A stretch of DNA of 64,000 bases, from contig OY760937.1 of assembly GCA_963664225.1 (NCBI GenBank), positions 1,152,001 through 1,216,000 of the forward strand, in the 5' to 3' direction. This stretch comes from Verrucomicrobiia bacterium. Its GTDB lineage: Bacteria > Verrucomicrobiota > Verrucomicrobiia > Limisphaerales > UBA1319. The notes under the pieces were generated by a model that searched no databases, was not told the origin of the DNA, and saw only the letters and a list, made by a program, of their open reading frames with translations. This document shows positions 6,201 through 49,538 of this stretch, one piece after another (positions within the stretch are counted from its first letter, which is position 1; the number at the start of each line of letters is the position of its first letter). A program made the translations under genes and the position numbers.

Positions 6201-6408
6201 AGGCGCTCCGCCAATTACAGTGTCCGTGTCTACGCAGGGGACAAACCTGTTGTTGACCTGGACAGGTGGAATAGCGCCATACGGGGTGGAAATGGCGACC
6301 AACCTGACCAGTCCAACCTGGTGGCACATTGCGACACCGTTTAATGGGCACAGCATCATGCTCGTTTACAGCAATTCGGCTGCGTTTTATCGAGTTGGTG
6401 GACTGTGA
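3247..6408 (+). CDS. Secreted multidomain GH18-like glycoside hydrolase (FN3, beta-sandwich, Ig-like, LamG, putative Ig)
   Basis: Signal-like N-terminus; DAINLDDE resembles the GH18 DxxDxDxE motif; FN3 (PAPSGLAA...LTW...YNVKRS); Ig (YYSW...SGNYSIVVSN); LamG (AYWRLNE...WHHLVGV). ATG at 3247 chosen; the ORF track uses 3211. Confidence 0.8.
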   Translation: MHVCPGLVSLIAWLAVILAMAGHRLEGASTSGIFGGGPFYSGGTQVMNDLRASGFTTVILWTIHVNASTGDLILNDQKVASNGAYVGNATWPGQLATLKQAPTSVRRIEVGIGSWGVNDFQSIKTLMASQGTNTNSILFRNFRALKTATGADAINLDDEMLYDIASTVKFCLMCASMGYKVSLCPYTNPNFWSGCMTQINSQLPGTVDAVFLQCYAGGAGNDPASWNSTFGGFKVFPGMWCRHGSACAEGDNPATVASSMAAWKRTAGVNGGFLWLYDDMRSCTSEGTTADYARAINSAFRLPAPSGLAAIPGGGTVLLTWNPSVGANSYNVKRSIYAAGPYAAIATNVLTPWFLNTGLGLGTRWFYEVSAVDANGEGINSVSVGALTCNGLLPAGWLDLDIGSVGLTGTATYCGNSFTIQAGGSDIGNLTDGFNFVSASASGNSAIISRVAFFEETDPGAKAGVMFRNDASRGSMFADIVVTPGQGILMQSRNIANGECVSTTVAGINTPVWLQMVRDGDTFTGYYASDGANWTQLGTVSIAMAGNVMSGLAVTAHSITNSALAIFDYVSTGAPAILQPSSPVNVMRSEGASYTFSAIASAALPVYYSWTQDGAALPNANQASLTLVNLAPTNSGNYSIVVSNAFGCITNSIAMLTVVATSNSLYPRTIVADHPLAYWRLNEVGGRVAYDYVGGNDGSYSNVWCGQPGYTPSDKSARFGYLSRSNSYVTISSVNFATPANAAFSVEAWANGIAQTNDSGILAKGTGAGGEQFNLDCGSGNHAFRFFVRDAGGGVHLANTSVVPNGKWHHLVGVCDEVHGRIIIYVDGISAGQGTITAGSGLLATSNPMTIGARQSGANTPFDLQFNGYVADVAVYNFALNAAQVQAHYSVTTNRPPVFTANPFTAMDAIAGQPYNGGIANFASDPNGGLLTFSKTSGASWLNISADGTLSGTPLSVDVGSNVFGVNVKDPTGLSASAVMNLNVAGAPPITVSVSTQGTNLLLTWTGGIAPYGVEMATNLTSPTWWHIATPFNGHSIMLVYSNSAAFYRVGGL

Positions 6409-6421
6409 AAAGCGATTGCGG

Positions 6422-8824
6422 TTACTGCATCCCGCCAACGGCGATTGCGTAATTACGACCTTCCCAGCCTTGATTGCCTTTCCAGAAAAAGGTGAATTCG
6501 ATTCCCGCACCGTTGGACAGCGTTGCCGTTGGTAAATCGGCGAACCACAAATGAAGAATTTCTTCCCGGGTTGACTCCATGGTGTGGGTGCTGGCCCAGC
6601 CGTCATCCGACCAAATGATGGCGGCGTCAGAAGCGAGGATGATGCGTAAAATCTTTCCGGCAGGCATTCGGCGAAGAGGGTGGCGGAAGCTCCAGAATTC
6701 GTGCCGGCTTTTCACCGGATACGCCACGTAGCGTTGGAAGGCGGGTTCGACTCGATCAAAGCAGACTCCGTCATGACGACTGCGGACAAGCGAGACATAT
6801 TCCGCATGTGACCAGCAGAGTGGCATCGCCGCGCCGGTGGGATGACCACTTTTAAAACTTCGATCTGGAAGGTTGTCCGCATCCCAGATCTGTTCGGTGA
6901 GCATGCAGCCTGCATTGGCAAACTTCTCCATCGTCGTGATGTAGGGCAAGGGATCGCGTCCGGCTGCAAGTTCGTAATGACCGCGTTCACCCGTCAAGAT
7001 CGGCCAGCAGCGTCCCACGCCGGAGCCGTCAAAAGCACTGCCATCGGCTTTCTGGCCGTAACCGTCGTGGTTGTAGCGGCGCCAGCCGGACCCTTGCGGC
7101 AGGTCGTATTTCAAAACGCGATCCAGAACTTCAATCGAATCCCGCACTATGGGATTATCAGCCGCGCGAATACCCAAACGCACCATGTGAAGAAAATCGC
7201 CGCCGACAATGTTCCTGGCCGGATGGATTCCTCCGCCGTTTGCGACCGCAAGCATTGTGGTATTGGGATCGGCATGAGGATCGGGCGTCTTGGGATCGGT
7301 GGGGTTGATCCGGATGTAGTGGCGTGGAAAACCTTCCACCAACTCCCCGCGAGTTGTGACTGTCCATTCTTCAAGATGCGAGGCGAGCCAATCGGCATAC
7401 GTCAAAATGAGTTCCGCCGTGTTCGTCTTCCCGGATTGCCCGGCGAATTCCGCAGCGCAGACCATGCTGGCGATGACTGTTGCGAGCGTGGGAGGTGAGT
7501 AACCGGCATTTTCCTCCCAGCGTTCCTGGGCTGTTACCGGACCTTCCAGAATGAGATACGCCGCTGCGCGGAAAATCATCACACACGGATTGAAGAGACC
7601 AAAACTGATGCATTCATTGCGCAAACGCCATGCCAACAGTATGGGCGCGGCAATTTCATCAAGCTGCAAACCGGGCCAATACGCCTTGCCATTGATCCAG
7701 CTATTTTGTGGAAAACTGCCGTCGGCCCCCTGGATGGCCGCGAGCCAGATCAAAGCGCGTAGAGGAGTGCCGGTCTGACCCGAAGCAAGCAGCGCCGTCG
7801 CGCTTTGTACCAGGTCACGAGTCCAGACCAGATGATACCCGCCGAGGTCATTGTCATTCTTGGTTTCGCCCCAGGGGATGCTCATGGAGGCGACCAACGC
7901 TCCTTCGAATGTTTTGTCTTCGTGAGCGAGCAAGATGCAGCGGCTCAACCGATACAAATGCCCTCCATCTGTGGTGTGATCGCTGAACTCACATTGCGGA
8001 TTGATCACGGTGCGTTGCCACTGGCGGACAAACGCTTCTCGATGCGCATCAAACGGCTCGGCCAGGGATTGGAGCAGCTTTGTTGCGGTGCTCTGGCAAC
8101 TGCGTCCGAACGCGATGCCAATGGTAAATTCATCGCCATCCTCGAGATTGATTTCGCCGGTCAGCGCTATGTTACCGTCATCTGCCGAGCGAAATTCCCA
8201 ATTCATCCTAAAATTGCTCATCAAATCCCGCCAGCCGTCGCTGAAACCGACATAGCCGACGGAGCGGCGCGAAAAGCCGATGCTGGAACCCATGACCAGG
8301 TAAATTTCTCCGCGTTCAGCGTGGAGTAGTGTGTTACCACCGATTTCGGAACACCATCCGGAATTGCCAGCGCCATAACGCGCGAGGTGCGGGGCCAGCA
8401 GCGCGTAGAGGCGCAACTTGCCGCGCAACGATTCATCAAGCACTTCAACTTTCGTGTGAACGAGCAGTACGGACCGGTGTGGATCCGTCAGAACGTGTTT
8501 TATAATCCGGTAGCGTCCCTTTCGTTCGGAATTGGTGAGACGATAGAACAGACAATCGCGCTCCGGATATTCAAGCCGATGCAGCAGGTCGCGCTTTTCC
8601 TCGTGGCAGAAGGTTTCTCCATCACTGATGAGATATTGGAAATCGCGCGTATTGGGCTGATCGACATGCGGGTAATAAATCTCATTTACGATGCCGTGAC
8701 TGAGAGTAAACCAGAGACGACAGCTCGTGTGATACGCGGTGCCAAGACCCTCCTTGGCACTGGATGTCCAACGGGGCTCAATGCCCGGTGCGCCGAAAGC
8801 TGCTGGATGATCAGGGAGGTTCAT
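6422..8824 (-). CDS. Glucoamylase / glucan 1,4-alpha-glucosidase (GH15, glucodextranase-like N-domain)
   Basis: PGIEPRWTSSAK N-terminus, GGYHLVWTRD, QERWEE and LCWSHAEY motifs. Confidence 0.92.
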   Translation of the reverse strand: MNLPDHPAAFGAPGIEPRWTSSAKEGLGTAYHTSCRLWFTLSHGIVNEIYYPHVDQPNTRDFQYLISDGETFCHEEKRDLLHRLEYPERDCLFYRLTNSERKGRYRIIKHVLTDPHRSVLLVHTKVEVLDESLRGKLRLYALLAPHLARYGAGNSGWCSEIGGNTLLHAERGEIYLVMGSSIGFSRRSVGYVGFSDGWRDLMSNFRMNWEFRSADDGNIALTGEINLEDGDEFTIGIAFGRSCQSTATKLLQSLAEPFDAHREAFVRQWQRTVINPQCEFSDHTTDGGHLYRLSRCILLAHEDKTFEGALVASMSIPWGETKNDNDLGGYHLVWTRDLVQSATALLASGQTGTPLRALIWLAAIQGADGSFPQNSWINGKAYWPGLQLDEIAAPILLAWRLRNECISFGLFNPCVMIFRAAAYLILEGPVTAQERWEENAGYSPPTLATVIASMVCAAEFAGQSGKTNTAELILTYADWLASHLEEWTVTTRGELVEGFPRHYIRINPTDPKTPDPHADPNTTMLAVANGGGIHPARNIVGGDFLHMVRLGIRAADNPIVRDSIEVLDRVLKYDLPQGSGWRRYNHDGYGQKADGSAFDGSGVGRCWPILTGERGHYELAAGRDPLPYITTMEKFANAGCMLTEQIWDADNLPDRSFKSGHPTGAAMPLCWSHAEYVSLVRSRHDGVCFDRVEPAFQRYVAYPVKSRHEFWSFRHPLRRMPAGKILRIILASDAAIIWSDDGWASTHTMESTREEILHLWFADLPTATLSNGAGIEFTFFWKGNQGWEGRNYAIAVGGMQ

Positions 8825-8857
8825 GCTCCAATATTACTTGTTGCCAACATCAGAAGT

Positions 8858-9547
8858 TCAAATTGCCATAAAGTCACACATGTTGTATTTGAGCAATTCT
8901 CCAATGTGATCGATGCTGGCGTCTGCCGCAGGGCTGCCTGCCAGAATCTTTGGATCTGAGGCGTAATGTCCCTGCCGGACGAAAATCGTCGTTACCCTGC
9001 CTTTCCAAATGTGTTTGACCGCGGCCAGGATCCGCAGTTTGTCGTCCACGAGCACGTAATGATCGGCAGGGCAGTGCGCTTCCACGTCTGCCAGTTCGTG
9101 CTCTTTGTGCACATAAATCAGCGCGCGGCCATCGACCGCTTCATAAAGACCCGAGCGGTCGATTTTGCGAGGTTGAAAAACGACGTCGCCGTCCGTAAGA
9201 AGGACCGGGGGGCCCCACTTTGCGACGCGCTCGATGACGTCGAGTGAATTCGGGAAGAGCCGGTTGGCGAAAGGGTAGTTGATGAGAAATCGCGAGACTG
9301 TCAGCAATCGCAAATCGTGAGGATGTTCGCTTCGGTAACGCTGCAACGCGCCCAGATAGTCTGCGTAACCAAGCTTGGCGCGCAACTGCTCGAAAGTGTC
9401 CCAATAATGCTTCGCGTATTCTGGACCCACCTCGCCTATGAGATGCTTCCTGAGATCGGCAGTGACGCGGTCGTTGTCGAGCAATGTGTTATCCACGTCG
9501 AAAAGAAAAACAATTTTGCTCTTCCTTGGTTTTTTTGAATTTTTCAT
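8858..9547 (-). CDS. HAD-family hydrolase
   Basis: Motif I FDVDNTLLD and motif IV VDD. Confidence 0.85.
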   Translation of the reverse strand: MKNSKKPRKSKIVFLFDVDNTLLDNDRVTADLRKHLIGEVGPEYAKHYWDTFEQLRAKLGYADYLGALQRYRSEHPHDLRLLTVSRFLINYPFANRLFPNSLDVIERVAKWGPPVLLTDGDVVFQPRKIDRSGLYEAVDGRALIYVHKEHELADVEAHCPADHYVLVDDKLRILAAVKHIWKGRVTTIFVRQGHYASDPKILAGSPAADASIDHIGELLKYNMCDFMAI

Positions 9548-20764: not shown

Positions 20765-23170
20765 TTATTCTTTGGGCTTGAAGTTCTTCAAGTTGTCGAT
20801 CAGCGACTTTATCTGGGCGTTGTTTGGATCGAACTTCAGACTCGTTTCCGCAATCAGTAGCGCATCTTTCGCTCGGCCTGAGGTGATCAATAGATTAACG
20901 TAGCGGAAGAGTGTTTCCGGGCTGGTGGGGCAAAGGGCGTAAGCTTGCCGAAAGGCGTAATCAGCTTCTTTCGTCATCCTCTGCTTCTCGTCCGGAGTTC
21001 TGGCGTTGGTGGCGCGCCAGGCGTAAAGGCCGCCAATGGCGCTGCGCAGCTTGGAGAAGGCCTTCTGAGCCCATGTATCCGCGATGAATTGAGGATCGCC
21101 AGTGAATCCACCCAGATCATGCTTGAGGTAAACCTTCTCTGCGAAGGCGGCAATCTCGGCAACCGACGTGTCTTCTTTGAGCCAATCGCCCATCATGGGC
21201 TGGAGATACCGTATCCAATATTCGCGGTCCTTTTGAGCCAGTTCCTGTGAGAGGCTCTCCAGCGGTTTGCGATTGATTTTTAGGATCAGCCCGTTGGGCG
21301 AGAGGTGGGGATACATCCATTCAAGTGGAAAGCTTTCCTCGATGTAAAACTCGCGATCGGGGTTGCGATCGAAAATGGTTTTTGTGAGCAGGCCATTAAT
21401 GTTCATGACGGCGACTTGGCCGCTGACCTGCACTTTGTTGTCTTTCATCCGCACATCTTCGCCTGGCTTGAGTTTGTTCTCATTGAGCCGTCGGGTGGCA
21501 TCGGACGTATATTCCATGAAGGATTTTTGAGAATCTTCACCAGTGAGGGTATGGATGTTCGGGCCATACATCGCCCGCACGTATTCCAAGTAAGTGGCAT
21601 CGGCCAGGGCGTTCTGCGTGATGGTGTAGAATGGTTTTCCATCGGCATGAGATTCGGACATGGCAGTGATCACGCCGCGACCGGGATCGGTGCCGCCGAA
21701 GTAAATGCTGCCGGGCGGTATCGATTTGATGATGTCATTGCCATAGGCCAGAACATATTTTTCCTTCCAGTTGGAAAACTCCTGCCATGCAAGGTCTGTC
21801 TCAAGGATCGGGCTCCAGACCTTATCCAACGAATCATCCGCTTTCGTCCCTTCGTACTGATGGGCCCGTCCACGCATGGCAACCCAAAGATTTGTGGCCT
21901 TGGTCCAATCCCCGGATTTGCCCGCCTCAAAATAGGGCCAAACCTCCGGGGCCACGGGATTTCCTTCAGCCAGCTTCCGCGCCTGGGCTTCCTTGGCTGC
22001 AAAGAAGGAGCGCAAACGGGCATCGAACCACGGCTTCGCATTGGCTTCGGGCGTCGATGCATTGACCTCGGTCTTCTGCGCGGCAACGCAGGCGACCAGT
22101 GCAAGCACGGCGACTGAGCACAAACTTACGAGCAAGGTGTGTGGAGTGCTGCGAGGGCGGGAGGCATCCACGATGGCAGTGATCCGATCCTTCAGGCGCG
22201 AGGACCTGGCCATGGCGATGGCTTCCACCGGAGGCACACAGCGCAAAGTCGTGGCGATTTCCACAAGATGCGTGGCGTAGTCCGAGGCCTTGCAGCCGCC
22301 GTTCAAGACCATGTCATCGCAGGCGCTTTCGCGTTCGATGCGCATCCGCCGCGCAGCCATCCAGACGAGAGGATTGAACCAGTAAGTTGCGCACGCAAGG
22401 CGGGCCACGAGTTGAGTCAGGAAATCCCGGCGTTTCACATGGGAGAGTTCGTGCAGCAGCACGACCTTGCGCCGTTCCTCCGGCCAGTTGTCTGCATTCG
22501 CAGGGAGAAGGATGACTGGGTGTAACCAGCCCCACGTCATAGGCATCACATCTTCATCCGATTGCAGCAGGGTGACAGGCCGTTGAACTGCCAATTCCGC
22601 GCAAAGCTGGCGCAACAACGGATTCCAGTCGGGATTTATCGGAGGCCTCATCTTACGGTGGAACGACCGGAGCCGCAATTGACCCACCACAATCGAAAGG
22701 AGGATGACACTTGCACCGGCCATCCAACCGGCCACTAGCAGAGCGGCCCAGCCTGTGGTAAAACGGGTTGTAAGTTGCGGCCTTGAGCCTCCTTGTGCGG
22801 CGGCGGATTTTGTGGGAGCCGTGACAGATGAAGGCGCAGTCGTTTGAGTTTTGGCAGTCGTGGGCATTCTTGCTGGGACAAACTCGAGGGTGAGGGTGAG
22901 TTCATTATTGGCGTTCGCGCGCGTCCCTACTGTCCATAGCGGCCTTTGCCAGGAGGGCAGCACTTGTGAAAGGACTGGCAAACAGAGTAATCCCGCCAGC
23001 GCCAGGAACCATACCAGGTGACGCGCGGATGAAGCACTCCGACGCAAGCAAAGGCAGGCGCCGCATGCGACAATAAGAATGACGAGGCTTTTCAGTATGG
23101 CATCCAGAAACATCGCAGCGAACTGGGAGTGCTGGAGCGAGTATAATGTGGCAACGGTCCACGGGGTCAT
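20765..23170 (-). CDS. BlaR1/MecR1-like M56 metallopeptidase with a DUF2723-derived C-terminal extracytoplasmic domain
   Basis: TM helices, HELSHVKRRD (HExxH), WFNPLVW and ERESACDD; C-terminal ~320 aa align by eye with the 45690-49538 protein. Confidence 0.9.
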   Translation of the reverse strand: MTPWTVATLYSLQHSQFAAMFLDAILKSLVILIVACGACLCLRRSASSARHLVWFLALAGLLCLPVLSQVLPSWQRPLWTVGTRANANNELTLTLEFVPARMPTTAKTQTTAPSSVTAPTKSAAAQGGSRPQLTTRFTTGWAALLVAGWMAGASVILLSIVVGQLRLRSFHRKMRPPINPDWNPLLRQLCAELAVQRPVTLLQSDEDVMPMTWGWLHPVILLPANADNWPEERRKVVLLHELSHVKRRDFLTQLVARLACATYWFNPLVWMAARRMRIERESACDDMVLNGGCKASDYATHLVEIATTLRCVPPVEAIAMARSSRLKDRITAIVDASRPRSTPHTLLVSLCSVAVLALVACVAAQKTEVNASTPEANAKPWFDARLRSFFAAKEAQARKLAEGNPVAPEVWPYFEAGKSGDWTKATNLWVAMRGRAHQYEGTKADDSLDKVWSPILETDLAWQEFSNWKEKYVLAYGNDIIKSIPPGSIYFGGTDPGRGVITAMSESHADGKPFYTITQNALADATYLEYVRAMYGPNIHTLTGEDSQKSFMEYTSDATRRLNENKLKPGEDVRMKDNKVQVSGQVAVMNINGLLTKTIFDRNPDREFYIEESFPLEWMYPHLSPNGLILKINRKPLESLSQELAQKDREYWIRYLQPMMGDWLKEDTSVAEIAAFAEKVYLKHDLGGFTGDPQFIADTWAQKAFSKLRSAIGGLYAWRATNARTPDEKQRMTKEADYAFRQAYALCPTSPETLFRYVNLLITSGRAKDALLIAETSLKFDPNNAQIKSLIDNLKNFKPKE

Positions 23171-23171
23171 A

Positions 23172-23555
23172 TTAGCGGTTATCCTTTCTGGCTTTTTCTA
23201 TGAGTTGTTGAAGATTGGTTAAGTCTGATTCTGAAAGTTTCGTATCCGCCGTCTCGAGAAGGGTCGCCATGGTTTGGGCCACTGACCCTTGAAAAAATGT
23301 CGAGACCACGCGTTTCAAGGCCGAGCGACGTGCAGTCTCGGGCGATGTGCGGGAGACATACACGTAGCGGGCCCCGTCTCGGCGATGGCGCACATGGCCT
23401 TTTTCCTCGAGGATGCGGAGCAGGGCACGAACGGCAGAATAACCTGGAGGTTCGGGCAGGTCGGCGAGGACTTCCGCTGCGGTGGCCTGGCCTTTGGAAT
23501 GGAGAACATCCATGATCTGACGTTCGCGGCGGCTGAGTTGTTGATCGTTATTCAT
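23172..23555 (-). CDS. BlaI/MecI/CopY-family transcriptional repressor
   Basis: LSRRERQIMDVL, YSAVRALLRILEEKG and FFQGS; lies 1 nt upstream of the M56 gene. Confidence 0.93.
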   Translation of the reverse strand: MNNDQQLSRRERQIMDVLHSKGQATAAEVLADLPEPPGYSAVRALLRILEEKGHVRHRRDGARYVYVSRTSPETARRSALKRVVSTFFQGSVAQTMATLLETADTKLSESDLTNLQQLIEKARKDNR

Positions 23556-23561
23556 GCTTAA

Positions 23562-23622
23562 GTGCTAAAAAAGTAGCACATCGGCCTGAGGTGTCAAAAA
23601 GAATATGCTAAAATATTAGCAT
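23562..23622 (-). promoter_or_regulatory. sigma70 promoter (TTGACA-N16-TACTTT, extended -10) with two TGCTA-N6-TAGCA operators
   Basis: Palindromes at 23562-23579 and 23605-23622; -35 at 23597-23592 and -10 at 23575-23570 on the minus strand. Confidence 0.75.
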
Positions 23623-23766: not shown

Positions 23767-25107
23767 TCACCGGCCTGCGCCCCAGGCGGTGCCGAAGGGA
23801 TTTATATGAACGCGATAGGTCTTGCTGCTGTGAAGCAGCGAGTGGCGTGTGAGTAGAAATGCCAACGCAATAGTGACTCCCACAATGATACTGATGAGAC
23901 TAAAGGAAATTTCGTGGTTCGTGAAAAATACTGTGGGCACGATCTGGAATAGAATCACCGTGAAAAGCATCAAGGCAAAAGCATCCCTTCCCGCACCCAA
24001 CCAGCTTACAAAAACAACACACATCGCGGCAGGCGCGAGAATTAGCGCATAACTTCTTAAGATCATTATTGCCGACGGAGTACCCGAGGTTAATCCTGAG
24101 ACTCCTGCCACAAAGGCCCCAACCGCGATCAGCGGTAGAAGAACCAATCCAATCATCACAGCGGTGAGTTTGGTGGCGGACATGGGGAGTGTACGCAAAA
24201 GGCGTATTTGCAGCAGTGTGGGCATGATGGCAAAGATAATAATGAGCCAGAAGGGCATCGTATTACCTACACCTGCAATGCTGTCCATGACTCGCTTCAA
24301 CGACGTCAAATGCCCCTGTAAAGCCAAAAACACCGGCATCATGACAAACATCACCAGACCGATTAAGAAGGACCGGACAAACGTCGTGCTGATCAAATAT
24401 GGAATTCCCCCAAACCCCGCGGGCGCACGGTGCTGCCCGCGCGGATCTTTGGACTGCAGCCCCGCGAGACGGAAACTGGCGCGGCCAATGACGAATTGTT
24501 CGGCCCGGAACCAGCCGAAGACGGTCAACGAACCGCCAACTGCCAAAAAGCATCCAAATTTAACGGGAGCTTTCAAAACGTCCTGGAAAAACAAAAAGCC
24601 GCCGCCGATCATCAATCCCCACATCATGCTAAAGAAGACATTTCGCGCGCGAACCCACCAGTTCCCATACCAGCCGCGCGAGGTGCTGAAGATAATGGTG
24701 AAGCCTATCCCCAACCATAGCAGGGTAACGAGGCCACACAGAGCAAGCCGGACGAACGGCACAGTCTTGTCGGGGTGAAACAATTGAAAAGTTTCCGCCC
24801 CTAGGATCAGGATTGCGTTCAACGCGACTGCGGGGATGCCAACGGTCGCGAGCCACCAGGCGCGTCCGATTTGTTTGCACGTCAGCGGCAATGCTGCAAC
24901 GGTGCGTGCGAGACCATGCTGGAAATCAAACGCAAGCAGGAACGCGCCTGTGAATAAGGCGACTTGGATTTGAATGCTCGAAGCCATGTCAAACGTGTTT
25001 TCAAGCGCCCTGCCCGAGGTGGACACACCAATTGCGAATTCAACCACCGCGGCAAGTACCAGCACCCACCACCAGCGCCGATAGTGATCGAGAATCAAGC
25101 GTTTCAT
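23767..25107 (-). CDS. Multi-pass membrane protein, probable ABC permease
   Basis: About 12 hydrophobic segments; ATGA overlap with the ABC ATPase. Confidence 0.75.
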   Translation of the reverse strand: MKRLILDHYRRWWWVLVLAAVVEFAIGVSTSGRALENTFDMASSIQIQVALFTGAFLLAFDFQHGLARTVAALPLTCKQIGRAWWLATVGIPAVALNAILILGAETFQLFHPDKTVPFVRLALCGLVTLLWLGIGFTIIFSTSRGWYGNWWVRARNVFFSMMWGLMIGGGFLFFQDVLKAPVKFGCFLAVGGSLTVFGWFRAEQFVIGRASFRLAGLQSKDPRGQHRAPAGFGGIPYLISTTFVRSFLIGLVMFVMMPVFLALQGHLTSLKRVMDSIAGVGNTMPFWLIIIFAIMPTLLQIRLLRTLPMSATKLTAVMIGLVLLPLIAVGAFVAGVSGLTSGTPSAIMILRSYALILAPAAMCVVFVSWLGAGRDAFALMLFTVILFQIVPTVFFTNHEISFSLISIIVGVTIALAFLLTRHSLLHSSKTYRVHINPFGTAWGAGR

Positions 25108-25985
25108 GCGGCCTCCTCTTCCTTGACGAGGGCCACGAACAAATCCTCCAGCGTCAGGCGCGTGAGCGAGATTTGTTGCGCTCCGCGCGTTTCGAGCCAA
25201 TCCAATGCCCCACTTTCCTGGTCGAGCAAAGCTTGCCAGCGGTTTTCGGTCCGCCTCAAAATGGTAAGGCCCTCTCGATTCTGGAATGTCGTGCCGTTAT
25301 TGGTGAAAAACTCCACAAAGCGGTAGCGGTCCACGACTTTGTCGGTCCGCCCTTCGAGAAGCAGTTTGCCGTCCTTGATCATCCCTATGTGGTCGGCGAA
25401 ACGTTCGATGTCGCTTAAACCATGTGACGAAATCAGCACAGTGTGCTCGCCATCCTCGACGGCCTTGAGAAGTTCGCCGAACACCTGCTGCTTGGAAACA
25501 GCATCGAGGCCGGTGGTCGGTTCATCGAGGATCAATATGTCCGGTCGGCGTGAAAGCGCCAGCAGGAGGCTCAACTTGGTTTTTGCGCCAAAGGACAGTG
25601 TGGCAATTTTGTCCGTATCACTGAGATTAAAGGCCTTCATCAATGTGGCGCAGTAGGAGTCATCCCATTCGGGATAAAAGCCGCGCACGAATCGGATGGC
25701 TTTCCCGACCTTGCCCCAAACCTGGAAATTCAAATCGGGGCTGACATAGGCAGCGCGGCGTTTGAGTGCCACAGCATCGGAGCGATGGTCGAGGTCCAGC
25801 ACGCGTATTTCCCCTGCGTCGTTTCTTCCCATGCCGAAGATCAAATCAATGGCCGTCGTTTTGCCCGCGCCATTCGGTCCGATGAGGCCATAGATCGCGC
25901 CGAGTGGAACAGTCAGGTCAAGGGGCCCGAGTTGGAAGCGTGGATACTTTTTGACAAGTCCGCGGATTTCGATGGCATTGGTCAT
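25104..25985 (-). CDS. ABC transporter ATP-binding protein (YtrB-like)
   Basis: Walker A GPNGAGKT, signature LSFG, Walker B ILDEP and SSH switch. Confidence 0.93.
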   Translation of the reverse strand: MTNAIEIRGLVKKYPRFQLGPLDLTVPLGAIYGLIGPNGAGKTTAIDLIFGMGRNDAGEIRVLDLDHRSDAVALKRRAAYVSPDLNFQVWGKVGKAIRFVRGFYPEWDDSYCATLMKAFNLSDTDKIATLSFGAKTKLSLLLALSRRPDILILDEPTTGLDAVSKQQVFGELLKAVEDGEHTVLISSHGLSDIERFADHIGMIKDGKLLLEGRTDKVVDRYRFVEFFTNNGTTFQNREGLTILRRTENRWQALLDQESGALDWLETRGAQQISLTRLTLEDLFVALVKEEEAA

Positions 25986-26030
25986 AGTGTCTTTGGGTCG
26001 GGTTTTGGTCTTGGCGCCAATGAAATCCAG

Positions 26031-26306
26031 TCAGCGCAGCGCGAAGGCAATGCCTGCCCCCAGGATGGCGCAGGCGACCGCGGCAATGGCCATTGTCCTC
26101 ATCTGGCCGCGATTTTGGATCCGCTTTCCAAAGGCGGCAAAATAGGCAATCAAGCTGATGACTGAAAAGGCCACCATGGCGATTCCCCCTCCGTATTTGC
26201 CCAATGGCAAAGCCGGGATGATGATTAACAGGATTACGACAAGGGCGGAGGAGAAAGCCACCTCGTCCGCCTTCATTCTCTGCGTCTCATTTGATTTCAT
26301 AAGCAT
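26031..26306 (-). CDS. Small 3-TM membrane protein
   Basis: Three hydrophobic segments; same strand, between the GntR and ATPase genes. Confidence 0.55.
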   Translation of the reverse strand: MLMKSNETQRMKADEVAFSSALVVILLIIIPALPLGKYGGGIAMVAFSVISLIAYFAAFGKRIQNRGQMRTMAIAAVACAILGAGIAFALR

Positions 26307-26402
26307 ATTGACTGGTTAATGGTGTGTCTGCGTGCCTAAAACCAGTGCCATTAGTGGCATCGGCGGGGACACGTCCGGCAAATTGATTGGAGAGGTCCGC
26401 GT

Positions 26403-26804
26403 TCATTGCTTCTCCTTGAGAATTTCACGGGCAAGTTCAAGAATTTCGGCGGGCTTCAATCCAGCTTCGGCGGCTTCACGAAAGCCCTCACGAAAAAGAC
26501 CGCGCGCTGCGACGAGTTTCGTTTCGCGACTGCGGTCGTGCCCCTGTTCGGCCACAAACGTTCCCAGACCCTGTCGGCGGAAGATGATGCCTTCGCGCTC
26601 CAGTTCCTCGTAAGCCCGCTTGACGGTAATGACGCTGACGAGCAAATCCTCCGCGAGATGGCGGAAAGAGGGCAGGGCGACACCGGGCTCTAGGCGGCCC
26701 TCGCTGATCTCGCGTTTCAGGCGGTCAACGATCTGCTGGTAAAGCGTGCCGCCGGCGGCGGGCGAGATCGGGCCGATCAACCAGGATTTGGGTTCGTTCG
26801 TCAC
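26403..26804 (-). CDS. GntR-family regulator, YtrA subfamily
   Basis: LYQQI...LPSFRHLA...SVITVKRAYEELE...GLGTFV with a short C-terminus, upstream of ABC genes. GTG start at 26804 inferred from the promoter position. Confidence 0.9.
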   Translation of the reverse strand: MTNEPKSWLIGPISPAAGGTLYQQIVDRLKREISEGRLEPGVALPSFRHLAEDLLVSVITVKRAYEELEREGIIFRRQGLGTFVAEQGHDRSRETKLVAARGLFREGFREAAEAGLKPAEILELAREILKEKQ

Positions 26805-26843
26805 TGTGGATACAGTATATAACAGATATATACACCGAGTCAA
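26803..26843 (-). promoter_or_regulatory. Promoter TTGACT-N18-TATACT with overlapping inverted repeats (candidate YtrA operator)
   Basis: The minus strand reads TTGACT cggtGTATATatctgttATATACTGTatccACAGTG. Confidence 0.65.
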
Positions 26844-44736: not shown

Positions 44737-45294
44737 ATGAACGACGACGTCTCGCCGCAATTGAACTGGTTGGAACGCTTGTATGAAGAACAAGCGACCA
44801 AGCTGGTTCTGTACGGTCGGGCGCTCGGATTAAGTCATTCTGAGTCGGAAGATGTTCTTCAAGAAGTATTTGTATCGCTAATAAAACGCGATTTGCCGCC
44901 TGAGCAACCGACCTTTTATTGTCTGCGCGCCGTCAGGAATCGTGCGCTGAACTACCGGCGATCATTGTGGCGACGGATTCAGCGTGAACTGGAGTCGGCG
45001 GGCTGGTTTGAGACAAACTCTGATGAATTTGAACAGGAAAAGGCGGCCATGCGGTGTCTGGCGAACCTGCCAATGGAACAACGGGAAACGATCGTTTTAA
45101 AAATCTGGCATGGATACACTTATGAAGACATTGGACGGCTTTTGGAGGTTTCCCCAAACACCATTGCGGGGCGTTATCGTTACGGACTGCAAAAAATGAG
45201 AACCGTCTTGAAAGGATGGAATTATGAACGAATCGAATTTCGAGGAGAATCGACTGAAACAGTGGATTCCACGATCAACATCCCCACAACTTAA
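44737..45294 (+). CDS. ECF sigma-70 factor
   Basis: EDVLQEVF, VRNRALN and LPMEQRETIVLK...SPNTIAGRYRYGLQK. Confidence 0.9.
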   Translation: MNDDVSPQLNWLERLYEEQATKLVLYGRALGLSHSESEDVLQEVFVSLIKRDLPPEQPTFYCLRAVRNRALNYRRSLWRRIQRELESAGWFETNSDEFEQEKAAMRCLANLPMEQRETIVLKIWHGYTYEDIGRLLEVSPNTIAGRYRYGLQKMRTVLKGWNYERIEFRGESTETVDSTINIPTT

Positions 45295-45685
45295 AAACCG
45301 CATTTTTAATACATCGCGCGTCGAGGAGAGTCAGTATGACAGTGCCACGGAGATGCCCAAACAGATTTGGGGCGTTTCGGAGGCCCGCCCGCGCGTGATA
45401 TCCTTATATCGATGGCTGGCACCGGCTTTGGGCATGGCATTTGTATTCATGCTGGCGGTTCGACAGAGCGATTTGGGACCGGAAGGCGTCGTTATAGACC
45501 AGTACAGCCGCAACATGACTGGGATGAAGCATGGGAATGCCGGTTGGGATTATCTGGAGACCTCAGCGGAGCACACAATGCTCAACCATTTGCCACCGAT
45601 GATTTTTGAATCGACAAACGTGAGGGCATCCTCTTTTAGTATAGCCTCTTTTCTGCTGTTAAATACCAACGGACTGAAACGTTAA
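45224..45685 (+). CDS. Single-TM putative anti-sigma factor
   Basis: Overlaps the sigma gene by 71 nt; FEENRLKQWIPR N-terminus; one TM segment. Confidence 0.6.
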   Translation: MNESNFEENRLKQWIPRSTSPQLKNRIFNTSRVEESQYDSATEMPKQIWGVSEARPRVISLYRWLAPALGMAFVFMLAVRQSDLGPEGVVIDQYSRNMTGMKHGNAGWDYLETSAEHTMLNHLPPMIFESTNVRASSFSIASFLLLNTNGLKR

Positions 45686-45689
45686 AGCC

Positions 45690-48600
45690 ATGAGTAATGA
45701 AAAGTTAAAGTCGCCCAAGCCGACAACTTCGGGAACGACACCCGCCGCCGCCACCAACGGCACGGCGTTCGTCAAGCATCCGGCCCCCTTGTACCGATCG
45801 ATCGATTGGCTGACCTTTGCGCTAACCACGCTTCTGACGTTTCTAGCCTATTATTACACGCTGGCGCCGGATTTGACTTTGGAGGACTCGGGTGAACTGG
45901 CCGTGGGATCGTTTTATGCGGGCGTGCCGCATCCCCCGGGCTACCCTGTTTGGACCATTTTTACGTGGTTGTTCACGGTGTTGGTGCCCATTTCGAACAT
46001 TGCGTGGCGCGTGGCGTTGGCATCTGCGGTGGCAGCCTCGGTGGCCTGCGGTTTGCTGGCCTTGATGGTGTCCCGCGGCAGCAGCATGATGATTGAAGGA
46101 ATCTCCGACTTTAAGAACATCGAGAAAAAGTGGGAGAACGGGTTGTGCGTGGTGGCCGGTTTTGTTGCGGGCTGCCTTCTGGCGTTCAACGGCTTTTATT
46201 GGAGTCAGGCGGTCATTGTCGAGGTGTATTGCTTTGGGGTGCTATCGCTGATGGGGGTGCTGTGCTGTTTGCTGCGCTGGGTTTATGCGCCGCACCAGTA
46301 TCGCTATCTTTACATCGCGGCGTTGCTCTTCGGCATTTGTTTTACCAATCACCAGACGCTGCTCGTGGCGGCGATGGGCATTGAGGTGGCTGTTTTGGCG
46401 GTGAACCCCAAACTCGGGCGCGACCTGTTCCTTTTTAACAGCATTGTTTATTGCCTGGGTCTCTATGGAAAATACTCAGGCTCCATCGGAGCGTTCGATG
46501 CAAACCTGCCGTTGTTCGCCATTTACAATGCCATTGGGGTGTGGTCAGTGGCAACGGCACTGTGGTATTCGCTGAAGACAGACTGGACTGCGAAGCTTAA
46601 AATCGTGGGAGTTTTGCTGGGGGCTAATGTGCTGGCCTGGATTCTTTACATGATGTCCCATTCCCAGGGGAATCTCTCCGAGGCTTCACACACGATGTTG
46701 CTTTTGCTCATCAATGCCCTTGGTTTTGCATTGCTCTACGCTTTCTATGCCCTGTCTGGAAAGGCGGAGCGGTTGTTTACCGAGTGGAAACCGATGTTGA
46801 TTCTGGCCGGGGCGTGGGCGATTGGCGCGGGTTTCTATTTTTACATGCCGCTGACCTCGATGACCAATCCGCCAATGAACTGGGGCTATCCGCGCACGTT
46901 TGATGGTTTCCTGCATGCGCTGTCCCGGGGGCAATACGAGCGCACTAATCCGACCAACGACATATTCAAGTTTGTGGATCAAGTCCGCATGTTTTTTGAA
47001 GGTGCCACAGAAGAATTCAGCTTTGTGTACCTGCTCTTCGCCATTGTTCCTTTTCTGTTCTACAAAAAGTTACAGAAGCGCGAACGGTCTTGGATGATCG
47101 GGTTGGCGGCGATATTCCTGTTCCTGGGCTTTCTGCTGCTGATCCTGCTCAATCCTGGTACCGACAAACAGAGCCGCGATCTTAACAAGGTGTTTTTCAC
47201 CGCCTCGTATGCGATCATCGCCATTGGGGTGGGGTATGGGTTGACCTTTGTGGGTTGCTTGCTGGCGACCCAGTATGAGAAGTATCGGGAATGGGCGCTA
47301 TATGCAGCAGCGGGGGCGGGTGGCATGGCAGTCTATTCGCTGGCCAAAACGATGCAGGAGGTGGTTAATCCGTTGCTGGTCTATACGGCGATCTTCGGAG
47401 TCGCGCTGTCTGTCATGGCCGTTATCGCCCTGTTTTTCTCCCGCAAGAAAGCGCCCATGATCTGTTTACTGGCCATCTATGCGGCCATGCCGATTCATTC
47501 CATCACCGCGCACTGGTCTGACAATGAGCAGCGGGGGCATTTGTTCGGTTTTTGGTTTGGGCATGACATGTTCACACCACCGGACTTCGGTAAAGCCGGC
47601 CAGTTTTATCCCAAAATGGACAGGGATGCGATTCTGTTTGGCGGAACCGATCCGGGCCGGTTTTGTCCGACCTATATGATCTTCTGCGAGAGTTTTATCC
47701 CGCCGCAAAAAAGGCGCGATCCGGATTTTGACCGTCGTGACGTTTATCTCATCACGCAGAACGCGCTGGCAGACAGCACGTATCTCAATTACATCCGGGC
47801 CCATTACAACCGTAGCACACAGGTGGATTCCCCGTTTTTTCAGGAGATGTTTCGCTCACGGAATGAAAAGGAAGCCAACGTGACGACCAACCTTTTGGCC
47901 CGCATGGTTGGGCCGCTGGATCGGTTCTTCACCAGTTATGGAAAGAAAGTGGAGGATCGCCGACGCAAGGAGGGGGTCTATCCGCCCGTGGAAATTCACA
48001 CCCCCACGGTTGAGGAATCCAAAAAATGCTTTGAGGATTACATCAACGACGCCCAACACAGGTTGATGGCCAATCAATTGGAACCTGGGGAAGATGTGCG
48101 GATCGTCGAGGGCCGCGTACAGGTTTCGGGGCAGGTCTCGGTGATGCAGATCAACGGGTTGCTGACCAAAGTCATCTTTGACAACAATCCGACGAATGAA
48201 TTTTATGTGGAGGAAAGCTTCCCGCTCAAGTGGATGTATCCACACCTGAGTCCGTTCGGGATCATTATGAAACTCAATCGGCAGCAGGTGCCGGAATTCA
48301 CCGAGGCGATGGTGAAGAAAGACCATGACTTTTGGAGTCTTTATACTGAACGTCTTTGTGGGAATTGGATCACCTACGACACACCGGTGAAGGAGATTTG
48401 CGATTTTGCCGATCGGGTCTATCGACACATGGATTACCGGGGATACAAGGGGGATCGAAAGTTCGTGCGTGATAACGACGCGCAAAAAGCTTTTTCGAAA
48501 CTGCGCAGCGCCCAGGCGGGACTCTATGCCTGGCGCATCAATGCGGTTAAACCTGGTTCCCCGGAGCAGGCGCGAATGCTCAAGGAGGCGGATTTCGCAT

Positions 48601-49538
48601 TCAAACAATCCTTTGCCTTTTGCCCCTACAGCCCTGAAGCGGTGTTCCGCTATATCAACCTTTTGGCAACCACTCAGCGGATCGAGGATGCCTTGCTGAT
48701 TGCGGAAACCTGCCAGAAGTTTGATCCCGAGAATAAGGGCGTAAACGATCTGGTAAACCAATTGACGAATATCAAACAGAGTGGTGGGGCTGCCGCCGCC
48801 GCCGCCGCCGCCGCTGCGGCTGCCAATCCTCTGGCGCAATTGGAACAGCAATATGAGACCAATCCGGGGAATTCGCAGGTGGCCCTGACCCTCGCCAACG
48901 CTTATCTCCAGCGGCAGCAGACCAACCGGGCAAACGCCTTATTCGATCAGGCCATCAATCTGATGCTGCCCAAGTTTCGGACCAACCCGGCCGATGCCAA
49001 TACCGCGTTTCTTCTGGCCCAGGCGTATCAGAGCCGTCAGATGAAAGCCGAGGCAGTCTCCGTTCTCGACAAATTGATCGCCCAGCTTGAGCCATTGTGC
49101 GCGACCAACAGCACGAACGACTCGCTGGCGTTTAATCTGGTGCAGGCTTACGTCTTCCGCCAGAAGACGCCTCCCGCCATCGCCCTGCTGGACCGCATGA
49201 TCGCACCGGAGAAGGTGAGCACCAGCACATTGATGGGAGCGGCGCAGTTTTACGCGCAGTTGGGAAGCGTGCCCAAGCTTGAGTTGACCCTTCAGAAACT
49301 GGTTAAGATGGTGCCAGATAATGCGGAAGCCTGGTATGACCTGGCGGCCCTGCAGGCCGTTCAGAACAAAAATACCGAAGCGATTCAGTCCCTGGCCCAT
49401 TCCATTGATCTCAGCAACAAGCGTGCGGAAAAACAGCCGGGATCGAAAGATTTGAGTCAATTGGCCGCCTCGGATCCGCGATTGCAGAATTTGCGGCAAA
49501 TGCCTGAGTACAAAAAAATCGTTAAATCTCCGAAATAA
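45690..49538 (+). CDS. DUF2723/TMEM260-like membrane glycosyltransferase with C-terminal TPRs
   Basis: EDSGEL...GVPHPPGYP matches the TMEM260 signature, followed by many TMs, a soluble domain and TPR-like repeats (PDNAEAWYDLAAL). Confidence 0.88.
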   Translation: MSNEKLKSPKPTTSGTTPAAATNGTAFVKHPAPLYRSIDWLTFALTTLLTFLAYYYTLAPDLTLEDSGELAVGSFYAGVPHPPGYPVWTIFTWLFTVLVPISNIAWRVALASAVAASVACGLLALMVSRGSSMMIEGISDFKNIEKKWENGLCVVAGFVAGCLLAFNGFYWSQAVIVEVYCFGVLSLMGVLCCLLRWVYAPHQYRYLYIAALLFGICFTNHQTLLVAAMGIEVAVLAVNPKLGRDLFLFNSIVYCLGLYGKYSGSIGAFDANLPLFAIYNAIGVWSVATALWYSLKTDWTAKLKIVGVLLGANVLAWILYMMSHSQGNLSEASHTMLLLLINALGFALLYAFYALSGKAERLFTEWKPMLILAGAWAIGAGFYFYMPLTSMTNPPMNWGYPRTFDGFLHALSRGQYERTNPTNDIFKFVDQVRMFFEGATEEFSFVYLLFAIVPFLFYKKLQKRERSWMIGLAAIFLFLGFLLLILLNPGTDKQSRDLNKVFFTASYAIIAIGVGYGLTFVGCLLATQYEKYREWALYAAAGAGGMAVYSLAKTMQEVVNPLLVYTAIFGVALSVMAVIALFFSRKKAPMICLLAIYAAMPIHSITAHWSDNEQRGHLFGFWFGHDMFTPPDFGKAGQFYPKMDRDAILFGGTDPGRFCPTYMIFCESFIPPQKRRDPDFDRRDVYLITQNALADSTYLNYIRAHYNRSTQVDSPFFQEMFRSRNEKEANVTTNLLARMVGPLDRFFTSYGKKVEDRRRKEGVYPPVEIHTPTVEESKKCFEDYINDAQHRLMANQLEPGEDVRIVEGRVQVSGQVSVMQINGLLTKVIFDNNPTNEFYVEESFPLKWMYPHLSPFGIIMKLNRQQVPEFTEAMVKKDHDFWSLYTERLCGNWITYDTPVKEICDFADRVYRHMDYRGYKGDRKFVRDNDAQKAFSKLRSAQAGLYAWRINAVKPGSPEQARMLKEADFAFKQSFAFCPYSPEAVFRYINLLATTQRIEDALLIAETCQKFDPENKGVNDLVNQLTNIKQSGGAAAAAAAAAAAANPLAQLEQQYETNPGNSQVALTLANAYLQRQQTNRANALFDQAINLMLPKFRTNPADANTAFLLAQAYQSRQMKAEAVSVLDKLIAQLEPLCATNSTNDSLAFNLVQAYVFRQKTPPAIALLDRMIAPEKVSTSTLMGAAQFYAQLGSVPKLELTLQKLVKMVPDNAEAWYDLAALQAVQNKNTEAIQSLAHSIDLSNKRAEKQPGSKDLSQLAASDPRLQNLRQMPEYKKIVKSPK
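48789..48824 (+). repeat. GCN x12 poly-alanine tract containing (GCC)7
   Basis: GCT(GCC)7GCTGCGGCTGCC read directly from the sequence. Confidence 0.9.

Follow-up and report, generated by a model that had tools for sequence, protein, structure and literature searches.

The locus described here raises the question of what a proteolytic switch of the BlaI/BlaR1 type might read when its receptor carries something other than a penicillin-binding domain on its outer side. It lies in a stretch of 64,000 nucleotides (positions 1,152,001 to 1,216,000 of contig OY760937.1, assembly GCA_963664225.1; hereafter the window) from the complete genome of a Verrucomicrobiia bacterium of the order Limisphaerales. 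It consists of a blaI gene followed by a gene for an 801-residue membrane protease of the M56 family, whose C-terminal part is homologous to a domain of a glycosyltransferase encoded about 24 kb from the pair on the plus strand. What is new in this pair is the kind of outer domain, which, as judged by sequence comparison, comes from a large, unnamed, exported family paralogous to the outer domain of GT117 enzymes. We regard it as roughly an even call that the two genes form an autoregulated proteolytic switch of BlaI/BlaR1 type which reads the state of GT117-dependent envelope glycosylation. The pair is made up of the following parts:

23172..23555, minus strand: blaI, encoding a 127-residue winged-helix repressor of the BlaI/MecI/CopY family (Pfam Penicillinase_R, PF03965, 3.5e-27, residues 7-120)
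22076..23170, minus strand: M56 membrane-protease module (residues 1-365), with four hydrophobic helices and the HELSH zinc site in loop 3-4
21710..22075, minus strand: linker, followed by the helical subdomain at the N-terminus of the sensor (residues 366-487; delimited by model helices and phmmer)
20765..21709, minus strand: shared domain (residues 488-801, plus the stop codon), in which an alpha/beta core precedes TPR-like helices (delimited by BLASTP)

The blaI stop codon lies one base ahead of the start of the M56 open reading frame (ORF; 20765-23170, minus strand). Residues 23-333 of the M56 protein match Pfam Peptidase_M56 (PF05569; 1.2e-36, 126.9 bits against a cut-off of 31), and its translation contains HELSH, an instance of the HEXXH zinc site. 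Among the NCBIfam models, CopY/TcrY and BlaI both match the blaI ORF below their cut-offs, and blaR1_generic reaches 117 bits on the M56 protein against a cut-off of 400, over residues 142-372 only. Beyond Peptidase_M56 the sole Pfam match of this protein is a marginal TPR_19 (residues 732-791), and neither Pfam nor NCBIfam finds a penicillin-binding (acyl-serine transferase) sensor domain in it. An earlier reading of the window from its letters (the sequence-only reading) had described a BlaI/M56 module with a non-penicillin C-terminal domain, and the matches to Penicillinase_R and Peptidase_M56, the HELSH motif and the lack of a penicillin-binding domain bear this out. In all eight resolved related loci (L004, L006, L007-L010, L032 and L033) blaI is directly upstream of the M56-domain gene, and every resolved orthologue still has its M56 catalytic motif and its BlaI partner.

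As in BlaR1/BlaI and MecR1/MecI of Staphylococcus and Bacillus, the HEXXH motif of the M56 protein falls between helices 3 and 4, helix 4 leads into a C-terminal domain predicted to be exported, the repressor gene is next to the M56 gene within one operon, and palindromic operators, here predicted, overlie the system's own promoter. Unlike in those systems, no penicillin-binding domain of the class D beta-lactamase-like type serves as the sensor, the gene order is blaI then M56, the boxes read TGCTAA-N4-TTAGCA, and a beta-lactamase or PBP2a-type target gene is absent.

The nature of the outer domain becomes apparent from its comparison with the glycosyltransferase of the window:

45690..49538, plus strand: GT117/DUF2723 (TMEM260-like) GT-C glycosyltransferase of 1282 residues, with membrane module, shared domain and TPR tail
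47628..48779, plus strand: shared domain as it occurs in the transferase (residues 647-1030), including two segments confined to that enzyme, 677-686 and ~708-768

BLASTP of the 801-residue M56 protein against the 1282-residue DUF2723 protein yields one colinear alignment (M56 488-798 with transferase 647-1029; E 3e-100), in which 176 of 384 columns are identical (46%) and 74 are gap columns, the gaps corresponding to a 12-residue and a ~60-residue segment that are both confined to the transferase. The shared blocks are, in order, FGGTDPGR, ITQNALAD, PGEDVR, VQVSGQV, INGLLTK, EFYxEESFPLxWMYPHLSPxG, AQKAFSKLRSAxxGLYAWR, KEADxAFxQ, CPxSPE, FRYxNLL and DALLIAETxxKFDPxN. These are the eleven motif blocks to which the sequence-only reading had pointed, all of them visible in the alignment, and the coordinates it gave for the two copies (20765-21730 and 47630-48780) are off by a few codons at most. 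It had also stated that the M56 copy lacks the catalytic transmembrane region and an insert of about 60 residues, which agrees with what we find: the M56 protein is without PF11028, the alignment begins past the last membrane helix of the transferase, and the ~60-residue segment is transferase-only. In the complete genome of the window (5.78 Mb, one contig) the M56 gene and the transferase gene are the only carriers of the domain. On this comparison the core and helices of the sensor are paralogous to the outer domain of a GT117 (TMEM260-like) GT-C glycosyltransferase. The sensor is thus, as read from its sequence, a paralogue of one transferase domain and not a transferase: in contrast to GT117 and TMEM260 proteins it has the soluble domain only, with no membrane or catalytic module.

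Structure prediction for both proteins, which the sequence-only reading had suggested as a check, gave a confident fold for the sensor (model m1ed4983d4ff7; predicted local distance difference test, pLDDT, 94.8; predicted template-modelling score, pTM, 0.92) and a GT-C model for the transferase (mdc0bcfc0f2e0; AlphaFold2, residues 1-1040, 55 homologues; pLDDT 87.1, pTM 0.88). In the numbering of the sensor model, cap helices occupy positions 15-118, strands and helices 124-267, and a further set of helices 277-430. The extra helical cap (~378-487 in the M56 protein) is found, according to the phmmer classification, in both the stand-alone and the M56-fused homologues but not in the transferase, and the helical end of the sensor shows the helical hairpins of TPRs. 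A Foldseek search with the whole sensor returned nothing at E <= 0.001, the VIA-align rows spanning mainly residues 251-436 and being of TPR type, and a profile search of PDB sequences with the sensor gave TPR matches only, such that solved folds cover the helical end alone. The domain core likewise matches no Pfam or NCBIfam model, the terminal TPR alone being recognised.

The transferase matches PF11028 over residues 66-235 (3.4e-25, 89.3 bits against a cut-off of 24.2) and has TPR repeats after residue 1040. Foldseek with its model retrieved STT3, ArnT, PglB, AglB, EmbA/B/C and DPY19, with nine matches at E <= 0.001 (to STT3, ArnT and PglB), and these matches to solved GT-C structures identify it as a GT-C enzyme. 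Its first-loop motif LEDSGE has an invariant D66 and nearly invariant D61 and E69 among 55 aligned homologues, and the NCBI name of one homologue (P0288) is 'glycosyltransferase family 117 protein'. Like TMEM260, it combines PF11028, a GT-C fold, an acidic motif in the first loop and a C-terminal region predicted to lie outside. By analogy, mannose transfer from a polyprenyl-phosphate donor to Ser/Thr of proteins is a candidate activity of the bacterial enzyme. The genome of the window encodes a second PF11028 protein, which is without the shared domain.

Several lines of evidence predict that the sensor domain is extracytoplasmic. Hydropathy predicts M56 helices at 24-42, 52-70, 144-162 and 346-364, and the intervening loops contain 3 Lys and Arg residues in 43-51 and 26 in the HELSH-bearing 163-345. 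In BlaR1 the protease loop is cytoplasmic and the C-terminal domain after helix 4 is outside; this topology and the Lys- and Arg-rich 3-4 loop place the tail beyond helix 4 (~436 residues) outside. Among stand-alone homologues, 52 of 74 representatives have an N-terminal hydrophobic signal, and in other fusions a membrane helix separates cytoplasmic ECF sigma or TIR modules from the domain. The loops along the helices of the transferase model appear to show a positive-inside pattern consistent with its C-terminal domain being outside. In human TMEM260, the C-terminal region is on the lumenal side of the endoplasmic reticulum (PMC10214176). An extracytoplasmic position had been claimed for the domain from the outset, and as a prediction it is upheld by the M56 topology, the lipoprotein-type homologues and the positive-inside transferase loops.

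Beyond the window the domain defines a large family. With M56 residues 473-801 as query, a word-indexed search found 6459 proteins at E <= 1e-5 among 8000 candidates scored; when 50%-identity representatives were searched exhaustively with residues 366-801, 1531 clusters were found at E <= 0.001, of which 654 were at E <= 1e-30. We classed the carriers by phmmer with the window's own modules as queries. The 150 best representatives comprise 74 stand-alone forms (cap plus domain), which are the largest class, 28 M56 fusions, 19 transferase fusions and 29 with the domain only (mostly fragments); the 120 best word-search hits comprise 47 stand-alone forms, 72 M56 fusions, no transferase fusion and one with the domain only. 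The 74 stand-alone representatives divide into 17 having a hydrophobic N-terminus with a lipobox-like Cys, 35 with other hydrophobic N-termini and 22 with none recognisable, and some apparent stand-alone entries, for example P0034 and P0023, are shortened gene calls of M56 fusions. Less frequent architectures recognised with Pfam include ECF sigma regions 2 and 4 followed by a membrane helix and the domain (P0193, P0245), TIR followed by a helix and the domain (P0157, P0261), and ankyrin, domain and then Kelch (P0196); the M56-domain unit is itself extended by a SecDF P1 head in P0129 and P0153 and by ExbD in P0096. The domain is therefore carried by a range of proteins (lipoproteins and ECF sigma, TIR and ankyrin/Kelch fusions), a promiscuity that goes part of the way towards what the sequence-only reading had named as refuting its proposal. 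Every fusion that can be oriented puts the domain outside the membrane.

In the phylum, the domain is present in 105 of 301 sampled genomes; among the matches listed nearly all lie in frames of ~1000-1500 codons, i.e. the transferase form, and no M56-sized frame besides the window's is found among them. In the window's order it is present in 146 of 151 sampled genomes, with the transferase form close to universal. M56-fused copies were resolved in nine genomes (G000, G385, G336, G447, G443, G393, G406, G394 and G353), and stand-alone-sized frames, among the matches listed, occur in ~20 genomes of the order; a genome of the same genus (G347, 93% complete) showed the transferase form only. The names of their sources suggest that close homologues belong to Verrucomicrobiota of the Limisphaerales or 'subdivision 3' kind, and the M56-domain layout recurs within one group of soil and water bacteria, its members already carrying the public name 'M56 family metallopeptidase'.

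Some individual loci show further variation. Tandem M56-domain genes occur in L006 (8683-13910, minus strand), behind a single blaI, and in L041 (2812-9015, plus strand). In L032 of genome G394 (5515-8592, minus strand) the M56-domain protein has an insert of ~85 residues at the alignment position of the transferase-only insert. A stand-alone copy in L014 of G371 (4847-9019, plus strand) lies directly after a GH38 alpha-mannosidase gene, a single case that we treat as chance. The window's genome encodes four other M56 proteins (G000:C1 2005167-2008019, 2107488-2110937, 5014087-5017326 and 3633882-3636275), with other large C-terminal regions, which are secretin-like in one protein, contain CarboxypepD_reg/Ig-like repeats in two and are unassigned in the fourth; judging from these regions, M56 proteins with a non-penicillin outer domain are a general theme in this genome.

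The relationship between the sensor and its counterpart in the transferase was addressed with an unrooted FastTree phylogeny of the shared part in 175 rows, namely the two window copies, 37 M56-fused, 78 stand-alone, 40 transferase-fused and 18 unclassified sequences, drawn from all usable 50%-identity representatives and, for the remainder, from random subsamples. A branch with a support of 100 sets all 41 transferase copies, together with one fragment, apart from the other sequences; on the opposite side the M56 and stand-alone labels are intermixed, with 17 changes of label, at least five of which are forced by well-supported branches. This split indicates that the sensor belongs to an old, large non-transferase clade and is not a recent copy of its neighbour. 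Its identity to the transferase of its own genome is 55%, and to the transferase copies of other genomes mostly 50-61%; a recent intragenomic duplication is accordingly excluded by the transferase-only branch of 41 together with the lack of any greater closeness to its own transferase. Thus, where the sequence-only reading took the sensor for a copy of the soluble domain of a TMEM260-like enzyme, the homology stands (E 3e-100), but descent from the transferase of the same window does not (tree, support 100). The far wider distribution of the transferase form suggests that it is the older one, the unrooted tree itself not showing the order.

We then took the positions with a conservation of 95% or more among the 41 transferase copies and compared them with the same positions in 116 M56-fused and stand-alone copies. 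Kept in 90-100% of the latter (M56 numbering) are G497, R498, Q519, N520, Y527, Y530, R561, E571, N592, N603, E611, W618, P625, D648, W652, G661, R709, R719, Q742 and P748, and D524 (85%) and E612 (86%) are only slightly less conserved. The invariant positions confined to the transferase lie in segment 677-686 (DPxFDRRDVY) and in the 708-768 insert (R708, S709, D713, F716, D744, G751, E755, R758, R759, P765 and E768). The retention of most transferase-invariant residues in the non-transferase clade suggests a shared ligand; the sensor and transferase domains may have a ligand site in common, with the surfaces which in the enzyme face the catalytic membrane module being swapped for the cap.

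A further link between this kind of M56 protein and the GT117 enzymes is provided by the complete genome G450, where blaI, a sensor-less M56 gene and a GT117 gene are arranged head to tail (L024, 2390-8246, minus strand):

7863-8246, minus strand, L024 of G450: blaI
6528-7802, minus strand, L024 of G450: sensor-less M56 protein of 424 residues
2390-6559, minus strand, L024 of G450: GT117 gene

When the order was searched with the short M56 protein of G450, 20 rows were found at E <= 1e-30; below the query's own row, the first ten (E 4e-49 or better) are without exception M56 genes with the domain, among them that of the window. Given these top relatives, the M56 subfamily is specifically associated with the domain or the transferase.

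The output of the switch was sought in the promoter of the pair, which contains the following elements:

23606..23621, palindromic: distal operator-like box TGCTAA-N4-TTAGCA, exact, upstream of the -35 hexamer
23592..23597, minus strand: TTGACA, the likely -35 hexamer
23563..23578, palindromic: proximal operator-like box, one mismatch, over the likely -10 region

The two boxes are 43 bp apart and flank TTGACA; the same two-box layout is present upstream of the orthologous blaI in L007, L008, L009 and L010, with TTGAC or TCGAC at the matching position of these promoters. A scan of the 5.78-Mb genome for TGCTAA-N4-TTAGCA finds one exact and two one-mismatch sites, of which the promoter boxes are two and the only pair; the third (TGATAACGGGTTAGCA, genome position 1433687) has a G+C-rich spacer and no partner. 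In the same genome TGCTA-N6-TAGCA occurs in the two promoter boxes only, and the relaxed GCTA-N6-TAGC occurs at seven sites against ~83 expected from base composition, its full form being confined to the promoter pair. The relaxed form contains CTAG, a tetranucleotide generally scarce in bacterial genomes. The next gene being convergent, the operon ends at the M56 gene. Taken together, the boxes in the pair's own promoter only, the convergent next gene and the variable flanks support autoregulation well and make no other target visible, so that the operon itself is, as far as operators can be predicted, the sole detectable output.

The transferase has a signalling neighbourhood of its own:

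44737..45294, plus strand: extracytoplasmic function (ECF) sigma factor (Pfam Sigma70_r2 and r4), directly upstream of the transferase gene
45224..45685, plus strand: putative single-pass anti-sigma factor, by its position and one hydrophobic segment; start codon uncertain

The putative anti-sigma ORF (45224-45685) has no Pfam or NCBIfam match. An orthologue of the ECF sigma factor (E 1e-65 to 1e-71) is found directly upstream of the transferase in six of 14 sampled genomes, and homologues of the anti-sigma ORF occupy the same place in L018, L022, L023, L025 and L028; a homologue of one or both is directly upstream of the transferase in eight of the 14 sampled genomes of the order (L018, L022, L023, L025, L026, L028, L029 and L031). 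With these genes upstream in many loci, the transferase appears to be under envelope-signal control. The M56 pair resembles ECF sigma/anti-sigma envelope sensors in that the same domain also follows a membrane helix in proteins that begin with an ECF sigma factor (P0193, P0245), and differs from them in its output module, which is a protease and repressor pair.

These observations can be put together into a mechanism in which the sensor domain would bind, in the periplasm, the same kind of ligand as the transferase domain, most likely, by analogy with other GT-C enzymes, the acceptor, i.e. an unmodified protein segment or its glycan. The sequence-only reading had put forward unglycosylated or unfolded envelope proteins, or a glycan, as candidate ligands. 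The occupancy of the sensor domain would be relayed via helix 4 to the cytoplasmic M56 protease, which would remove BlaI from the two boxes and thereby raise transcription of blaI and the M56 gene, and the cell would in this way read the state of GT117-dependent envelope glycosylation. A number of points weigh against such a role. The sensor is without the transferase-only segments 677-686 and 708-768, each of which has invariant residues, so its binding properties may differ. The operon of blaI, short M56 and GT117 genes is found in one of 14 sampled transferase loci and in none of 79 M56 loci from other genomes, the latter being mostly generic and from many phyla (74 with M56, 68 with blaI, two with the domain and none with GT117). 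Co-occurrence with DUF2723, which the sequence-only reading had put forward as a check, is indeed observed, but because 146 of the 151 genomes of the order have the domain, mostly in transferase-sized frames among the matches listed, it carries little information. With many other carriers and stand-alone forms, the role of the domain need not be tied to M56 signalling. Further BlaI operators were not found elsewhere in the genome, and a sensor without a detectable target is odd; nor was a conserved target gene found beside the pair, the neighbours differing in every orthologous locus.

The last of these points lead to an alternative, in our view unlikely, in which the periplasmic domain is the payload: the M56-anchored and lipoprotein copies would bind clients of the glycosylation pathway, for instance as holdases or adaptors, with BlaI and M56 acting as a feedback loop that sets the amount of the membrane-anchored binder. 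It would account for the confinement of the operator sites in the genome to the operon's own promoter and for an operon that ends at the M56 gene, and it fits the predominance of stand-alone forms (74 of the 150 best clusters), their frequent interconversion with M56 fusions (17 label changes, at least five forced) and the extra periplasmic modules (SecDF P1 head, ExbD) behind the domain in some of these fusions. Yet the M56 motif and the BlaI partnership are kept in all resolved orthologues, and this speaks for genuine signalling; since receptors of the BlaR1 type are autoregulated too, autoregulation by itself is compatible with further targets whose sites have diverged; and some stand-alone forms are the above-mentioned shortened calls of M56 fusions (P0034, P0023). 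A quite improbable variant changes the ligand: on the outer side of the inner membrane, the domain would read the lipid-linked sugar donor or free polyprenyl phosphate instead of a protein acceptor, and the switch would report carrier-lipid supply. The domain is indeed near the membrane in every architecture: it follows the last transferase helix, with FGGTDPGR starting ~30 residues after it (model helices end at 612 and 628), is ~15 residues past helix 4 of the M56 protein, or is held by a lipoprotein anchor. However, solved GT-C enzymes bind the donor chiefly through their membrane module and its loops, their soluble domain being the part that contacts the acceptor, and the sensor has no membrane module.

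The arrangement in G450 could alternatively mean that the sensor docks on the GT117 enzyme or its TPR tail and reports transferase occupancy or abundance, the sensor-less M56 of G450 using the transferase's own domain in trans. The membership of that M56 in the same subfamily agrees with this, as does the sensor having a helical cap in place of the transferase membrane module and lacking the transferase-only segments; against it, there is one genomic instance only and paralogous domains need not bind one another, and we hold it to be very improbable. A broader proposal, which we consider improbable, extends the reading of GT117-dependent glycosylation by the pair to the whole non-transferase clade: its members (lipoproteins and M56, ECF-sigma, TIR and other fusions) would be a periplasmic receptor family for the GT117 glycosylation mark or the unmodified acceptor, the short M56 of G450 would read the transferase domain in trans, and together with the ECF/anti-sigma/GT117 operon they would constitute a surveillance network in Verrucomicrobiota that monitors the glycosylation of envelope proteins. 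Were this true, the network would be a bacterial counterpart of the quality control linked to O-mannosylation in the eukaryotic endoplasmic reticulum.

In the parts drawn on here, the literature found on DUF2723/TMEM260, GT117 and BlaR1/M56 in Verrucomicrobia does not describe this architecture, as the sequence-only reading had surmised; it is not rare, however, since M56 fusions make up 72 of the 120 best word-search hits and 28 of the 150 best clusters. The GT117/TMEM260 literature, to the same extent, treats the human enzyme, and no characterised bacterial member was found in it. TMEM260 is described as a GT-C module at the N-terminus joined to a TPR-bearing C-terminal region (411-707), which faces the lumen of the endoplasmic reticulum and is proposed to recruit acceptor IPT domains, and that study mentions only 'distant homologs in bacteria' (PMC10214176). 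Among BlaI/M56 systems, a preprint reports PvmSR of Pseudomonas aeruginosa and BlaIR of Mycobacterium tuberculosis and M. abscessus as pairs that do not sense beta-lactams, lack a sensor domain and do not control beta-lactam resistance, their signals being unknown (10.64898/2026.08.03.742534). Nearest to these is the sensor-less M56 protein of G450 (L024), whereas the receptor of the window differs from them in having an exported domain of 436 residues with an identifiable relative.

The pair is thus a further concrete example of BlaI/M56 systems without beta-lactam sensing, a poorly understood group, and the finding defines a large family of exported domains (1531 clusters at 50% identity, E <= 0.001). 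A receptor paralogous to the outer domain of the enzyme would offer a genetic handle on bacterial GT117 enzymes, whose substrate and role are not known, and the blaI promoter could serve as a reporter for the ligand and for conditions that perturb the glycosylation pathway. Neither a beta-lactam sensor nor a beta-lactamase being involved, the system has no bearing on antibiotic resistance.

Two other regions of the window deserve brief mention. Directly upstream of blaI (23767-26843, minus strand) are genes for a GntR regulator, an ABC ATPase and a 477-residue multi-pass membrane protein without a family match, none of which is conserved beside the orthologous blaI-M56 pairs. At 1062-3125 on the plus strand is a gene for a 687-residue protein in which two receiver-domain stretches, HisKA and HATPase_c are combined with a DNA-binding LytTR domain at the C-terminus, an unusual all-in-one histidine kinase and regulator.

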